Assembly (NCBI RefSeq): GCF_003334785.1
Contig: NZ_QOWV01000006.1
Strand: one strand, 5' to 3'
From: Escherichia coli
Lineage (GTDB): Bacteria; Pseudomonadota; Gammaproteobacteria; Enterobacterales; Enterobacteriaceae
Length of the DNA: 64,000 nucleotides
The notes under the pieces are model-generated. The model saw only the letters and a program-made list of their open reading frames with translations. It made no database searches and was not told the origin of the DNA. This document shows, piece by piece, positions 13,726 through 46,128 of the stretch (positions within the stretch are counted from its first letter, which is position 1; each line of letters opens with the position of its first letter). Made by a program: the position numbers and the translations under genes.

Positions 13726-14838
13726 TTACTTATTCGGTTTCTCGATTTCGCCAAGTTCTTCGAGAATTTCTTCCGGTTGGTCCGTCGGCGGCGGGACTTC
13801 TTCCACCCACGCGGCAAACAGACGCCAGGAAACGGCTAACAGAACCGGACCAATAAACAGACCGATCATCCCGAAAGCAATCAAACCACCAATAACGCCA
13901 GAGAGAATCAGGATCAGCGGTAAATCGGCACCCATGCGAATTAACATTGGGCGGATGACGTTATCCAGCGTGCCAACCACACCGCTCCACACTAACAATA
14001 CCGTTCCCCAGGTGGTATCGCCAGTCCAGTAGAGCCAGATAATCGCCGGAATCAGTACCGGCAACGGGCCAAGCTGGACAAGGCAGGAGAGGATCATTAA
14101 CACCGTTAGCAACGTTGCATAAGGTACGCCGGATACGGCGAGGCCGATACCGCCAAGCACTGCCTGTACTAACGCCGTCACCACCACACCCAGCGCCACC
14201 GCGCGGATAGCCTGTGCCGCCAGCAGCACGGCGGCATCTCCGCGAACGCCTGCCAGACGGGTTGCAAAATGGCGAATGCCTTGTGCCACCTGTTCACCGC
14301 GCCAGTACAGCAGGGCACTGAAGAGAAGCATCAGCGCACAATGCACCATAAAGCGCCCGATATGCGCCGCCTGCCCAACGAACCAGGTGGTGGTGGTGCC
14401 AATATAAGGGCGGACTTTCGCCATGATCGCCGTCCCCCCCATATCCAGCAAGTTGTGCCAGCCTGCATACAGCTTCGCGCCAATCACCGGAATGGTATTA
14501 AGCCACGCCAGATCGGGTAACGTCATGTCACCGCTGGAAATGGCTTTAATTAGCGGGCCGCTGCCGTCGACGATACTGTTAACCAGCAAAGCAATAGGGA
14601 TGATAAACACCATCACTAATAACAGCGTCATCACCAGAACGGCGAGAGAGCGGCGGCCAAACATGATCTTTTGCAAACGTAACAATACCGGCCAGGTGGC
14701 GATAACCACCGTACCGGCCCATGCAAAGCCGAGAATAAAGGGTTGAACAATCCACAGACATGCCACAATCATGATGGCTAAAAACAGCACCGAAAGCAGA
14801 ATTTGTGCGACATCCCTGGGCTGACGAACATTTACCAT
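13726..14838 (-). CDS. ydiK: Inner-membrane transporter, AI-2E / UPF0118 family
   Basis: ORF track 370 aa; polytopic membrane protein. Confidence 0.88.
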   Translation of the reverse strand: MVNVRQPRDVAQILLSVLFLAIMIVACLWIVQPFILGFAWAGTVVIATWPVLLRLQKIMFGRRSLAVLVMTLLLVMVFIIPIALLVNSIVDGSGPLIKAISSGDMTLPDLAWLNTIPVIGAKLYAGWHNLLDMGGTAIMAKVRPYIGTTTTWFVGQAAHIGRFMVHCALMLLFSALLYWRGEQVAQGIRHFATRLAGVRGDAAVLLAAQAIRAVALGVVVTALVQAVLGGIGLAVSGVPYATLLTVLMILSCLVQLGPLPVLIPAIIWLYWTGDTTWGTVLLVWSGVVGTLDNVIRPMLIRMGADLPLILILSGVIGGLIAFGMIGLFIGPVLLAVSWRLFAAWVEEVPPPTDQPEEILEELGEIEKPNK

Positions 14839-15226
14839 AACTACTTTTCACCTTTTTTGTGCGTCAAATCGTCGACGCGACGTGAACACGCGAAACTCAC
14901 CTGCATAATGATGAGCAATTTCAGCGGTTTTTAACAGGCCGATTCTGCCCTTAATTCTGATGGGCGTGTTAGAAAAAAATGTGGTACAACAACTCAGGCA
15001 ACACGCAAACGATTTACTCGTCGTATTTCAAGTTGCATGTGCTGCGGCTACGTTCGTTCACCCCAGTCACTTACTATTGTAAGCTCCTGGAGTTCACTCG
15101 CTTGCCGCCTTCCTGCAACACGAAATCCATAGAGTAAACAAACATCACCTTTCAGTGCGCTATTGCAGCAGCCTGAAAGAATAGTGTATCGACCTACATC
15201 ACAGACCGCAGGAAAGGGTCAATATA

Positions 15227-18200
15227 ATGATTCCACAGATTTCCCAGGCACCCGGCGTCGTTCAACTGGTGCTTAATTTTTTGCAAGAGCTGGAGCAACA
15301 AGGTTTTACCGGCGATACGGCGACAAGTTATGCCGATCGTCTGACAATGTCGACCGACAACAGTATTTACCAACTTCTCCCCGATGCGGTGGTATTTCCG
15401 CGTTCAACCGCAGATGTGGCGCTGATCGCCCGTCTTGCCGCGCAGGAACGCTATTCATCGCTGATCTTTACCCCCCGCGGCGGCGGCACCGGCACTAACG
15501 GTCAGGCGCTCAACCAGGGGATTATTGTTGATATGTCCCGCCATATGAACCGCATCATCGAAATTAACCCTGAAGAGGGCTGGGTGCGCGTTGAGGCCGG
15601 GGTGATAAAAGATCAACTCAATCAGTACCTGAAACCGTTCGGCTACTTTTTTGCGCCGGAACTTTCGACCAGCAACCGGGCAACGCTCGGTGGGATGATC
15701 AATACCGATGCATCCGGTCAGGGATCGCTGGTCTATGGCAAAACGTCAGATCACGTACTTGGCGTACGCGCGGTGTTGTTGGGGGGCGATATTCTCGATA
15801 CGCAACCTTTACCCGTCGAATTGGCGGAAACGCTGGGTAAATCCAATACCACAATCGGGCGAATTTATAACACGGTTTATCAACGTTGCCGTCAGCAACG
15901 CCAGTTAATTATCGACAACTTCCCCAAACTTAACCGCTTTCTTACCGGTTACGATCTGCGTCATGTCTTTAACGATGAGATGACCGAGTTCGACCTGACG
16001 CGCATTCTGACGGGTTCAGAAGGGACGCTGGCCTTTATTACCGAAGCGCGGCTGGATATTACACGCTTGCCTAAAGTGCGCCGTCTGGTGAACGTCAAAT
16101 ATGACTCTTTTGACTCTGCGCTGCGTAACGCGCCGTTTATGGTTGAGGCGCGGGCGCTTTCGGTAGAGACGGTGGACTCAAAAGTGCTGAATCTGGCGCG
16201 GGAAGATATTGTCTGGCATTCCGTCAGCGAGTTGATTACCGATGTGCCTGACCAAGAGATGCTCGGGCTGAACATTGTGGAATTTGCTGGTGATGATGAG
16301 GCGCTGATTGATGAGCGGGTAAATGCACTCTGTGCGCGGTTGGATGAGCTGATCGCCAGTCATCAAGCAGGTGTCATCGGCTGGCAGGTGTGCCGTGAGC
16401 TGGCGGGGGTTGAACGTATCTATGCAATGCGCAAAAAAGCCGTTGGTCTGCTTGGCAATGCCAAAGGTGCCGCTAAGCCAATTCCGTTTGCTGAGGATAC
16501 CTGCGTACCGCCGGAACACCTGGCGGATTATATTGCTGAATTTCGCGCGCTGCTCGACAGCCACGGCTTAAGCTACGGTATGTTCGGTCACGTCGACGCA
16601 GGTGTCTTGCACGTCCGTCCAGCGCTGGATATGTGCGATCCTCAACAAGAGATTTTGATGAAGCAAATCTCTGATGACGTGGTGGCGCTGACTGCGAAAT
16701 ACGGTGGTTTGTTGTGGGGCGAGCACGGCAAAGGTTTTCGCGCTGAATACAGCCCGGCGTTTTTCGGTGAGGAACTTTTTGCAGAACTGCGCAAAGTGAA
16801 AGCGGCATTTGACCCGCATAACCGACTCAACCCAGGGAAGATTTGCCCGCCAGAAGGTCTCGATGCGCCGATGATGAAAGTGGACGCGGTGAAGCGCGGT
16901 ACATTCGATCGGCAGATCCCCATTGCGGTACGCCAGCAGTGGCGCGGTGCGATGGAGTGTAACGGCAACGGTTTATGCTTCAACTTTGATGCCCGTAGTC
17001 CGATGTGTCCGTCGATGAAGATCACCCAGAACCGGATTCATTCACCGAAAGGGCGCGCAACGCTGGTGCGTGAATGGCTGCGTTTGTTGGCGGATCGCGG
17101 CGTTGATCCACTCAAACTGGAACAAGAACTGCCTGAATCCGGCGTCAGTTTGCGGACGTTAATTGCCCGCACGCGCAATAGCTGGCATGCGAATAAAGGC
17201 GAATATGACTTCTCACACGAAGTCAAAGAGGCGATGTCGGGCTGTCTGGCCTGTAAAGCGTGTTCGACCCAGTGCCCCATCAAAATTGATGTGCCGGAGT
17301 TTCGCTCTCGTTTTCTGCAGCTCTATCACACCCGTTATTTACGCCCGCTGCGCGACCACCTCGTCGCTACGGTCGAGAGCTACGCGCCGCTGATGGCACG
17401 CGCGCCGAAAACCTTTAACTTCTTCATTAACCAGCCGCTGGTGCGCAAACTCTCGGAAAAACATATCGGCATGGTTGATTTGCCGCTGCTGTCGGTCCCC
17501 TCGCTACAACAACAAATGGTGGGGCATCGCTCGGCAAACATGACGCTGGAACAGCTTGAATCTCTCAATGCAGAGCAGAAAGCGCGCACAGTGTTGGTGG
17601 TGCAGGACCCCTTTACCAGCTATTACGATGCGCAAGTGGTGGCGGATTTTGTCCGTCTGGTCGAAAAATTAGGTTTCCAGCCTGTGTTACTGCCATTTTC
17701 GCCAAATGGCAAAGCCCAGCATATTAAAGGTTTTCTTAATCGTTTTGCGAAGACGGCGAAAAAGACGGCGGATTTCCTCAACCGTATGGCGAAGCTGGGT
17801 ATGCCAATGGTGGGCGTCGATCCGGCGCTGGTACTTTGTTATCGCGATGAATATAAACTGGCGCTGGGCGAGGAGCGTGGCGAGTTTAACGTCTTACTGG
17901 CGAATGAATGGCTGGCAAGCGCACTTGAGTCACAGCCAGTGGCTACAGTCAGCGGTGAATCATGGTATTTCTTTGGTCACTGTACCGAAGTTACCGCCTT
18001 GCCGGGTGCGCCAGCACAATGGGCCGCGATATTTGCCCGTTTTGGCGCGAAACTGGAAAATGTCAGCGTGGGTTGCTGCGGCATGGCAGGGACTTACGGA
18101 CATGAAGCGAAAAACCATGAAAATTCGCTCGGGATCTATGAGTTATCCTGGCATCAGGCTATGCAGCGACTGCCGCGTAACCGCTGTCTGGCGACCGGAT

Positions 18201-18283
18201 ATTCCTGCCGTAGCCAGGTAAAACGGGTTGAAGGCACGGGGGTACGCCATCCTGTGCAGGCTTTACTGGAGATTATTAAATGA
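15227..18283 (+). CDS. ydiJ: FAD-linked oxidase fused to an Fe-S domain (D-2-hydroxyglutarate dehydrogenase)
   Basis: ORF track 1018 aa; N-terminal FAD-binding region; Fe-S motif CLACKACSTQCP; a second Cys cluster near the C-terminus. Confidence 0.9.
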   Translation: MIPQISQAPGVVQLVLNFLQELEQQGFTGDTATSYADRLTMSTDNSIYQLLPDAVVFPRSTADVALIARLAAQERYSSLIFTPRGGGTGTNGQALNQGIIVDMSRHMNRIIEINPEEGWVRVEAGVIKDQLNQYLKPFGYFFAPELSTSNRATLGGMINTDASGQGSLVYGKTSDHVLGVRAVLLGGDILDTQPLPVELAETLGKSNTTIGRIYNTVYQRCRQQRQLIIDNFPKLNRFLTGYDLRHVFNDEMTEFDLTRILTGSEGTLAFITEARLDITRLPKVRRLVNVKYDSFDSALRNAPFMVEARALSVETVDSKVLNLAREDIVWHSVSELITDVPDQEMLGLNIVEFAGDDEALIDERVNALCARLDELIASHQAGVIGWQVCRELAGVERIYAMRKKAVGLLGNAKGAAKPIPFAEDTCVPPEHLADYIAEFRALLDSHGLSYGMFGHVDAGVLHVRPALDMCDPQQEILMKQISDDVVALTAKYGGLLWGEHGKGFRAEYSPAFFGEELFAELRKVKAAFDPHNRLNPGKICPPEGLDAPMMKVDAVKRGTFDRQIPIAVRQQWRGAMECNGNGLCFNFDARSPMCPSMKITQNRIHSPKGRATLVREWLRLLADRGVDPLKLEQELPESGVSLRTLIARTRNSWHANKGEYDFSHEVKEAMSGCLACKACSTQCPIKIDVPEFRSRFLQLYHTRYLRPLRDHLVATVESYAPLMARAPKTFNFFINQPLVRKLSEKHIGMVDLPLLSVPSLQQQMVGHRSANMTLEQLESLNAEQKARTVLVVQDPFTSYYDAQVVADFVRLVEKLGFQPVLLPFSPNGKAQHIKGFLNRFAKTAKKTADFLNRMAKLGMPMVGVDPALVLCYRDEYKLALGEERGEFNVLLANEWLASALESQPVATVSGESWYFFGHCTEVTALPGAPAQWAAIFARFGAKLENVSVGCCGMAGTYGHEAKNHENSLGIYELSWHQAMQRLPRNRCLATGYSCRSQVKRVEGTGVRHPVQALLEIIK

Positions 18284-44113: not shown

Positions 44114-45046
44114 ATGTGGTCAGAATATTCACTCGAAGTTGTTGATGCGGTAGCGCGTAATGGTAGTTTTAGCGCTGCGGCACAGGAGCTGCATCGCGTT
44201 CCTTCTGCGGTCAGCTATACCGTGCGTCAGCTGGAAGAGTGGCTGGCGGTGCCGCTCTTTGAACGACGGCACCGTGATGTGGAGCTGACCGCTGCTGGAG
44301 CGTGGTTTCTCAAAGAAGGGCGCTCTGTTGTCAAAAAAATGCAGATCACCCGCCAGCAATGTCAGCAGATAGCGAACGGCTGGCGCGGTCAGTTAGCTAT
44401 CGCAGTGGATAATATTGTCAGGCCAGAACGTACACGGCAGATGATCGTTGATTTTTATCGCCATTTTGATGATGTCGAACTTCTTGTCTTTCAGGAAGTG
44501 TTCAACGGTGTCTGGGATGCGCTTTCCGACGGGCGCGTGGAACTGGCGATTGGCGCAACACGCGCGATTCCGGTAGGCGGTCGTTATGCCTTCCGGGATA
44601 TGGGGATGCTAAGCTGGAGTTGCGTTGTTGCCAGTCACCACCCGCTGGCGTTGATGGATGGCCCGTTCAGCGATGATACGTTGCGCAACTGGCCGTCGTT
44701 GGTGCGCGAAGACACCTCGCGAACGCTACCTAAACGTATTACCTGGTTGCTGGATAACCAAAAAAGAGTTGTCGTGCCTGACTGGGAATCATCGGCAACC
44801 TGTATCTCGGCAGGATTATGCATAGGGATGGTGCCAACACATTTCGCCAAACCGTGGCTTAATGAGGGGAAGTGGGTAGCATTAGAACTGGAAAACCCCT
44901 TTCCGGATTCGGCATGTTGTCTGACATGGCAGCAAAATGATATGTCGCCTGCGTTAACCTGGTTGCTTGAGTATCTCGGCGATAGTGAGACGCTGAATAA
45001 GGAGTGGCTGCGGGAGCCGGAAGAGACTCCCGCAACGGGTGATTAA
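44114..45046 (+). CDS. punR: LysR-family transcriptional regulator (PunR / YdhB)
   Basis: ORF track 310 aa; N-terminal LysR HTH. Confidence 0.88.
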
Positions 45047-46068
45047 CGACGATAGTCGCGGAACGGGCCGTCAGCCACGGAGCGGCGTTCAATCAAGCGC
45101 GGATGCACTTCAATAGACTGCGGTTCTTCACGTTTGTTGACGATACGATCCAACAGCATGTTGAACGCTGTTTCACCCAGCGAATCTTTTGGCTGATGGA
45201 TCGTGGTCAGCGCCGGCGTAAAATAGCGCGCGTTGCGCACGTTATCATAACCGATCAGCGAAACATCCTGCGGGACGCGCAGGCCCATTTCATCAGCAGC
45301 ACAAAGTGCGCCCATTGCCATGATATCGCCACCACAGAAGACGGCAGTAGGGCGATGCGGCTGCGACAGGATTTGCTGCATGGCGCGATAACCGGATTCA
45401 GGTTCAAAGTCACCCTGCACAATCCAGCTTTCCGGCACCTTGATCATCGCTTCTTCCATCGCCTTCATAAAACCGGCAAGGCGGCCTGCGCCGGTGTTAC
45501 GTTCCAGCGGGCCGGGGATGACGCCGATTTCGCGGTGACCGCGTTCAATCAGATAACGCCCGGCCATGTAGCCGCCTTCGAACGCGTTATCAATGACCGC
45601 ATCGGTGAAGTCAGCTTTTGCTTCACCCCAGTCCATGACCACCATTGGGATATGGCGATACTCTTCCAGCATCGCCAGCAACGGCTCTGGGTACTCAGAA
45701 CACATCACCAGCAGACCATCGACGCGTTTTTGCGCCATCATCGACAGATAAGCCCGCTGTTTCTCAAGATTGTTCCACGCATTGCCCAGAATCAGGGTGT
45801 AACCTTTCTGGAAGCAATTTTTTTCAACTGCTTCAATGATCTCGGCAAAATAGGCCGCTTCGCTGCTGGTCGCCAGCAAACCGATAGACTTGGTGTGGTT
45901 AACCTTCAGGCTACGCGCCACCGCGCTAGGGGAGTAGTGTAATTCTTTAATCGCTGCCCACACGGCGTTGCGCGTTTCTTCAGCGACGAAACGTGTTTTG
46001 TTGATCACGTGTGACACAGTTGTAGTGGAAACGTTTGCTCGTTTCGCTACATCTTTTATTGTTGCCAT
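45043..46068 (-). CDS. purR: Purine repressor (LacI family)
   Basis: ORF track 341 aa [33 protein letters not shown]... Confidence 0.95.
46027..46042. promoter_or_regulatory. PurR operator inside the purR coding region (autoregulation)
   Basis: Minus strand ACGAGCAAACGTTTCC matches the PurR box core AAACGTTT. Confidence 0.65.
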
Positions 46069-46112
46069 TCCATTTCACTCCAGACCCTAACTTCAGCTCC
46101 TGCAAAATCGCA

Positions 46113-46128
46113 AGGTAAACGTTTGCCT
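46113..46128. promoter_or_regulatory. PurR operator in the purR 5' leader (autoregulation)
   Basis: Minus strand AGGCAAACGTTTACCT, 45-60 nt upstream of the purR ATG. Confidence 0.7.

Follow-up and report, generated by a model that had tools for sequence, protein, structure and literature searches.

Within the 64,000-nucleotide stretch of Escherichia coli DNA analysed here (contig NZ_QOWV01000006.1 of assembly GCF_003334785.1, hereafter the window), the minus strand carries purR, the gene for the purine repressor PurR, together with two PurR-binding sequences (PUR boxes) that both lie downstream of the purR transcription start site (TSS): a strong box in the untranslated leader (operator O1) and a weak one inside the beginning of the coding sequence (operator O2). 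The 1.7 kb around the boxes had a match in 5,426 of the 5,426 complete E. coli genomes of our collection, several at 100% identity, and the genes annotated under these matches were punR, purR, cydH and ydhP. The open reading frame at 46068..45043 (minus strand) matched the purine repressor of E. coli known from crystal structures (1PNR, 1BDI and others) from end to end (E = 9e-231); this open reading frame is purR, and the window is a piece of the E. coli chromosome. We are highly confident that the boxes are the operators purRo1 and purRo2, through which E. coli purR is autoregulated; this arrangement was reported in 1990, and chromatin immunoprecipitation on microarrays (ChIP-chip) confirmed it in 2011. 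The features of the locus are as follows.

45043..46068, minus strand: purR coding sequence, 341 amino acids; both the source of the repressor and the gene repressed
46025..46040, minus strand: operator O2, weak PUR box GAGCAAACGTTTCCAC; purR codons 10–15, +187..+202 from the TSS
46078..46081, minus strand: Shine-Dalgarno sequence GGAG of purR, read from the sequence, 9 nt before the ATG
46113..46128, minus strand: operator O1, strong PUR box AGGCAAACGTTTACCT; +99..+114 from the TSS, −60..−45 from the ATG
46069..46226, minus strand: purR 5′ untranslated leader, 158 nt
46226, minus strand: purR TSS (G), the published TSS mapped onto the window sequence
46232..46237, minus strand: −10 element CAAAAT, with its end 5 nt before the published TSS
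46255..46260, minus strand: putative −35 element TTCCCC (3/6 match), 17 bp upstream of the −10 element

Distances from the start of transcription rest on the genome-wide TSS data that Kim et al. (2012) tabulated (PMC3415461, suppl. 2), which places the purR TSS at 1,735,710 (+) with a 5′ untranslated region of 158 nt; the sequence that this study gives upstream of the TSS is ...GGCCAAAATTCCACG. A first-pass annotation, made by eye from the letters of the window, had proposed two PurR boxes downstream of the purR start of transcription, one in the leader and one among the first codons of the gene, and both do lie downstream of the published TSS, at the established positions listed above. Both strings that it had named are present on the minus strand where it had placed them, AGGCAAACGTTTACCT at 46128..46113 and ACGAGCAAACGTTTCC at 46042..46027 (codons 9–14). 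The first is correctly centred. A second box is indeed present at the start of the purR coding sequence, but the string chosen for it is shifted by 2 nt from the CG-centred register: the true box is GAGCAAACGTTTCCAC at 46040..46025, which reaches 2 nt past the start at 46027 that had been noted.

In this register, each box has the PUR form, a 16-bp imperfect palindrome with a CG at its centre and a core of the AAAC/GTTT type, the two halves being AGGCAAAC and GTTTACCT in O1 and GAGCAAAC and GTTTCCAC in O2. The core that the boxes had been said to share was recovered as the 10-mer GCAAACGTTT, which is found at both boxes and nowhere else in the window (exactly two occurrences in 64 kb, with 0.42 expected and 5 of 100 shuffles reaching two). 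The centres of the boxes are 88 bp apart in E. coli, and the codons beneath O2 encode R-A-N-V-S-T, the turn of the PurR helix-turn-helix. The O2 16-mer is identical to an entry in Table 4 of PMC5110547 (MG1655 1,737,872–887). The identity of both boxes and their place relative to the published TSS are established here.

Both strands of the window were scanned with a PurR log-odds matrix built from 27 independent ChIP-chip motifs (Cho et al., 2011, Table 1), the purR gene's own site having been excluded. This matrix from real sites superseded a search with the perfect palindrome ACGCAAACGTTTGCGT, which at three mismatches or fewer had found only O1 in the 64 kb, with 0.70 matches expected and hence not significantly. 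O1 scored 21.5 bits and ranked first in the window (exact p = 3e-8 per position, 0.004 matches expected per window), well inside the leave-one-out range of the 27 ChIP sites (7.5–25.1 bits); it is far beyond chance on sequence alone. The first-pass annotation had named such a scan as its own check, with poor scores to be read as refutation: O1 passed decisively, but O2, at 10.4 bits, was borderline. A match as strong as O2 is expected 0.02 times within ±150 bp of O1, and O2 is beyond chance only once its position and conservation are counted. O2 stands on conservation and on published experiments, not on its matrix score.

Published work places PurR at this locus in vivo. Cho et al. (2011) reported a PurR ChIP-chip peak at purR (1,735,528–1,736,095), seen with adenine only, gave the motif under it as AGGTAAACGTTTGCCT (1,735,808–823) and concluded that PurR autoregulates itself directly. 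This motif is the reverse complement of O1 and lies at the expected distance from the ATG. The autoregulatory arrangement that the first-pass annotation had described as classic was indeed already known; what it had observed is confirmed and its interpretation is supported. The title of Rolfes & Zalkin (1990; J Bacteriol 172:5758) states that both operator sites are required and that they lie downstream of the transcription start. The boxes in the window do not differ from the purRo1 and purRo2 described there and by Meng, Kilstrup & Nygaard (1990): the locus and the sequences are the same, one operator is downstream of the TSS but ahead of the start codon, the other is in the coding region, and the coordinates match Table 1 of Cho et al. 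(2011) for O1 and Table 4 of PMC5110547 for O2. The IPOD-HR paper and reviews of the field contained no detail specific to the purR locus.

To compare the boxes across species, purR loci were fetched from species-representative genomes with a degenerate DNA pattern for codons 17–25, which does not overlap O2. Among the loci listed, the comparison set comprised 86 orthologous 5′ regions in addition to the window, drawn from genera other than Salmonella and Klebsiella; all counts that follow refer to these sampled loci. O1 was found near −60 relative to the ATG in 25/25 Enterobacteriaceae, 7/7 Erwiniaceae, 7/7 Yersiniaceae, 3/4 Pectobacteriaceae, 2/2 Hafniaceae and 2/2 Budviciaceae, and was thus kept in six of the seven Enterobacterales families sampled. 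It was not found in any of the five Morganellaceae, nor in most Pasteurellaceae and Vibrionaceae. The last of these results agrees with a statement of Ravcheev (2002), as relayed in a citing paper, that the autoregulatory site is missing in Vibrio cholerae and Pasteurellaceae. O2 was confined to the Enterobacteriaceae, where it was present in 24 of 25 species at 86–88 bp from O1; in Siccibacter (K10, TCT) the box is degraded and scores 5.9 bits.

When the region from −280 to +60 around the ATG was aligned for the 25 Enterobacteriaceae, only six runs proved fully conserved. Two of them are CAAAAT at 46237..46232 and AAAAATC at 46301..46295; the others are the core of O1, the Shine-Dalgarno region, the start codon and O2. 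The run in O1 is AGGCAAACGTTT, and the GGAG of the Shine-Dalgarno sequence sits inside the run GGTCTGGAGTGA.

Within the coding sequence, the conservation of O2 is visible at synonymous sites. Third codon positions over the first 80 codons are just 60% identical between the 25 Enterobacteriaceae, yet the wobble bases of codons 11–14 (GCA AAC GTT TCC) are invariant or conserved in 24 of 25 species. The mean wobble entropy of these four codons is 0.06 bits, compared with 1.02 bits in the other degenerate codons, and no other four-codon stretch within codons 2–60 is so frozen; equally conserved bases make up 9.5% of the other wobble sites, which gives a naive P of ~8e-5, uncorrected for phylogeny. 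The same codons vary freely in 26 other Enterobacterales (1.47 versus 1.22 bits). Codon bias was rejected as the cause of the frozen bases, the same codons varying freely in the clade that has glycine at residue 12 (Gly12); GCA, GTT and TCC are, moreover, not preferred codons in E. coli. Both O1 and O2 are conserved beyond the neighbouring sequence at the orthologous position, and the DNA sequence of both boxes is under purifying selection.

A few further wobble bases outside O2 were invariant in the 25 Enterobacteriaceae, such as those of codons 19 (TCA, 46012..46014), 23 (AAC, 46000..46002) and 30 (GAA, 45979..45981). Codons 19 and 23 fall within the retrieval pattern, which accepted any TCN and either AAY.

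The low score of O2 can be read against what the protein sequence permits. There are 768 distinct encodings of RANVST, among which the E. coli sequence is the third best PurR site (top 0.4%) and the commonest variant in the clade, GCGCAAACGTTTCCAC (14 of 25 species, 12.9 bits), is the single best. As the Thr15 codon forces an outer AC, O2 can never reach consensus and its score is capped at 12.9 bits; a functional site inside the RANVST codons is necessarily weak-scoring.

Codon 10, for arginine (46039..46041), is CGA in E. coli, E. albertii, Citrobacter and a few others and CGC in most of the clade. CGA is a rare codon, and its presence at codon 10 lowers the O2 score from 12.9 to 10.4 bits; it may tune the strength of O2, or may reflect drift.

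The AAAC half of the O2 core is supplied by codon 12 (46033..46035), which is AAC, for asparagine, in 25/25 Enterobacteriaceae. Elsewhere residue 12 is glycine (GGN): this holds for all 59 PurR orthologues sampled outside the Enterobacteriaceae except one with Asn (Acerihabitans) and two with Ala (two Aliivibrio species). Acerihabitans has Asn12 but reads GCT AAC GTA TCG and has no box. Gly12 is part of the A-G-V-S turn that is canonical for helix-turn-helix motifs of the LacI family, and it is kept in the paralogue RbsR too. No sequence that encodes Gly12 can score above 4.2 bits on the PurR matrix, whereas the Asn12 clade either reaches the synonymous optimum (12.9 bits) or stays at most 2.5 bits below it. 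On balance, we favour the view that O2 is a derived, Enterobacteriaceae-specific operator that became possible only after the change from Gly12 to Asn, so that the repressor's DNA-reading motif and a site lying in the codons for that motif would have co-evolved, and a second, tunable feedback site would have joined an older circuit with O1 alone.

As to how the two operators might act, both lie downstream of the TSS and far outside the footprint of promoter-bound RNA polymerase, which means that repression has to target polymerase that is already past initiation. With hypoxanthine or guanine in plentiful supply, a corepressor-bound PurR dimer would bind the strong O1 in the leader, and the same complex would bind the weaker O2 less avidly. 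At either site, bound PurR would form a roadblock to polymerase that is already elongating, as at purB, and the outcome would be mild negative feedback on PurR synthesis. A modest, corepressor-dependent double roadblock is the most likely account of the locus, by analogy with purB. Experiments published in 1990 are said to have included in vitro footprints and the loss of regulation on mutation of the operators, and reportedly demonstrated that O2 makes a functional contribution; the affinity of O2 is reported to be ~6-fold lower than that of O1, with non-cooperative binding and both sites contributing to a 2–3-fold repression. We infer that O2 contributes functionally here as well.

Several points weigh against this account. 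On the matrix, O2 ranks only sixth in the window, where 6 matches of its strength were seen against ~4 expected per 64 kb, and under leave-one-out scoring it beats only 2 of the 27 ChIP sites and falls below the other 25. The ChIP-chip peak at purR spans both boxes, which are not separable at the resolution of the method; Cho et al. (2011) assigned only O1 as a motif and called the binding regions intergenic. The wobble bases frozen in O2 are needed by the galactose repressor GalR as well as by PurR, so that conservation alone is no proof that PurR is the selective agent. Finally, the roadblock at purR is an analogy with purB, within which, according to papers citing He & Zalkin (1992), bound PurR acts as a transcriptional roadblock.

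GalR provides the alternative that survives best, namely that the boxes, and O2 above all, are operators for GalR (or GalS) that link galactose regulation to purR, with binding of PurR at O2 being secondary. A GalR ChIP-chip peak has been reported at ynhF/purR with a score of 9.5, validated by ChIP with quantitative PCR, for which O2 and O1 are the inferred sites (PMC5110547). We built a GalR matrix from the 17 other sites of that study, excluding those at the purR locus, and O2 was its best match in the window, at 14.4 bits, the GTGGAAAC half being a perfect GalR half-site. However, this score lies under those of all 17 GalR training sites (16.8–22.8 bits), O1 reaches 10.5 bits on the GalR matrix versus 21.5 bits on the PurR matrix, and neither box scores within the range of sites bound by GalR. 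The outer GT/AC of the GalR-like half is imposed by the Thr15 codon, and the commonest O2 variant in the clade (GCGC...) is the very synonymous encoding that is optimal for PurR. The study that reported the GalR peak saw little or no regulation of purR by GalR (PMC5110547). We consider this alternative improbable.

O2 itself is a hybrid, composed of the GalR-like half GTGGAAAC and the PurR-like half GAGCAAAC. It shares with GalR operators of the OE/OI type (GTGNAANCGNTTNCAC) membership of the LacI-family class of palindromes and a half that equals the GalR consensus half-site; it differs from them in its other half, which like the whole of O1 is PurR-like, and both boxes score below every bona fide GalR site on the GalR matrix.

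A second alternative, which we regard as slightly less probable still, retains PurR at both operators and replaces the elongation block with DNA looping between O1 and O2 or with action at the promoter. Two operators 88 bp apart do recall the looping systems of gal and lac. Against action at the promoter, both sites lie 99 nt or more downstream of the TSS, and the matrix scan found no PurR-like site of at least 8 bits between −300 and O1. Against a loop, PurR is known from the literature to be a dimer, and it lacks the tetramerisation helix of LacI; binding to the two operators is also said, in the work from 1990, to be non-cooperative. In addition, 88 bp corresponds to 8.4 helical turns, which puts the sites out of phase, and the drift of the spacing between 86 and 88 bp among species argues against a strictly phased loop. 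The elongation block by PurR at two operators remains preferable.

Very unlikely, in our view, is a third alternative in which O1 alone is functional and O2 is a chance resemblance driven by coding, the Ala-Asn-Val-Ser codons happening to spell GCAAACGTTTCC. It draws on the background-level matrix score of O2 and on the assignment of the O1 motif alone by Cho et al., both set out above, and on the outgroup families, which autoregulate, if at all, with O1 alone. Against it, the wobbles of codons 11–14 are frozen across 25 species that otherwise show 60% identity at third positions (with the P value given above, naive as regards phylogeny), the same codons are free to vary both in relatives with Gly12 and in Acerihabitans, where Asn12 occurs without a box, and the E. 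coli sequence belongs to the small top fraction of synonymous encodings. The 1990 paper, moreover, calls both sites required in its title.

The last alternative, that the O1 palindrome is conserved not as a protein site but as a hairpin of STnc550, a plus-strand small RNA antisense to the leader, has a full-length Rfam match in its favour (RF02081, 46069..46459, plus strand, 396.5 bits against a gathering threshold of 48), in a model that draws AGGUAAACGUUUGCCU as a stem-loop; it can be set aside almost entirely, as the palindrome is invariant rather than covarying, O1 reaches its 21.5 bits on an independent PurR matrix and lies under a PurR ChIP peak, the last third of the model is simply the coding sequence of cydH (46367..46456), and the one plus-strand TSS published for this region (46329) is downstream of O1. 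The 5′ end of RF02081 is the antisense of the purR ribosome-binding region, and the model runs antisense to the whole purR leader; it is probably a profile of conserved control DNA and a small-protein mRNA rather than of a structured small RNA. No mention of STnc550 was found in the open literature.

With PurR acting at both of its own operators as the preferred reading, the locus can be set beside other PurR-controlled genes. Boxes of the pur regulon (purF, purL, purMN, purHD, purT and others) are 16-bp CG-centred palindromes of the same kind (ACGNAAACGTTTGCNT), served by the same corepressor-dependent repressor; they overlap or abut the promoter, whereas those of purR lie at +99 and +187 and repress weakly. 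Promoter-overlapping PUR boxes give strong repression by blocking initiation. The closer likeness is with purB, which in the citing papers' account of He & Zalkin (1992) has a PUR box far downstream of the promoter, in the coding sequence, where elongating polymerase is affected and repression is modest; purB has a single intragenic site and purR has two, one of them in an untranslated leader.

As a known arrangement, the locus serves here as a positive control for reading operators by eye, and our additions to it are modest: the taxonomic distribution of the two operators, the evidence from synonymous sites and the dependence of O2 on Asn12. It also carries a caution for matrix-based searches, since a functional site such as O2 may score at background level when an overlapping reading frame caps its score. 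With O1 widespread and O2 specific to one family, purR offers a compact case of mutual constraint between a coding sequence and a regulatory site, and its one-operator and two-operator forms are a natural experiment on what a second, weak roadblock adds to autoregulation.

The purR promoter was placed by the published TSS and by conservation, which replaced a generic sigma-70 scan: a search for consensus sigma-70 promoters did not detect it, and its sole match (46566..46539, minus strand) was unrelated. The −35 element TTCCCC is putative, assigned from its spacing to the −10 element and from the mapped TSS; the −35 region is well conserved in the 25 Enterobacteriaceae.

A structured leader or attenuator was considered and rejected. 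The leader RNA fold showed no extra stability relative to shuffles (z = −0.13), an Rfam scan of the leader on the purR (minus) strand returned no match, and the one terminator-like hairpin, which is followed by TTTTT (46175..46189, minus strand, at about +38..+52 in the leader), is weak, with six pairs of which two are G-U. This hairpin needs no role in the best-supported mechanism.

Divergent from purR lies cydH (ynhF; MSTDLKFSLVTTIIVLGLIVAVGLTAALH), a small open reading frame of 29 codons at 46367..46456 on the plus strand. Its published TSS, at ~46329, is 103 bp from that of purR, and the two promoters stand back to back; the conserved blocks at 46295–46320 are probably the cydH promoter.

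The second-ranking match to the PurR matrix in the window was ACGCAAACGATTTACT at 15003..15018 on the plus strand (18.6 bits, 0.04 expected per 64 kb), in the divergent intergenic region between ydiK (13726..14838, minus strand) and ydiJ (15227..18283, plus strand). Cho et al. (2011) reported a PurR ChIP-chip peak at ydiJ/ydiK (1,766,545–1,767,225), for which their Table 1 gives no motif; by collinear mapping, the box at 15003..15018 lies near the centre of that peak.

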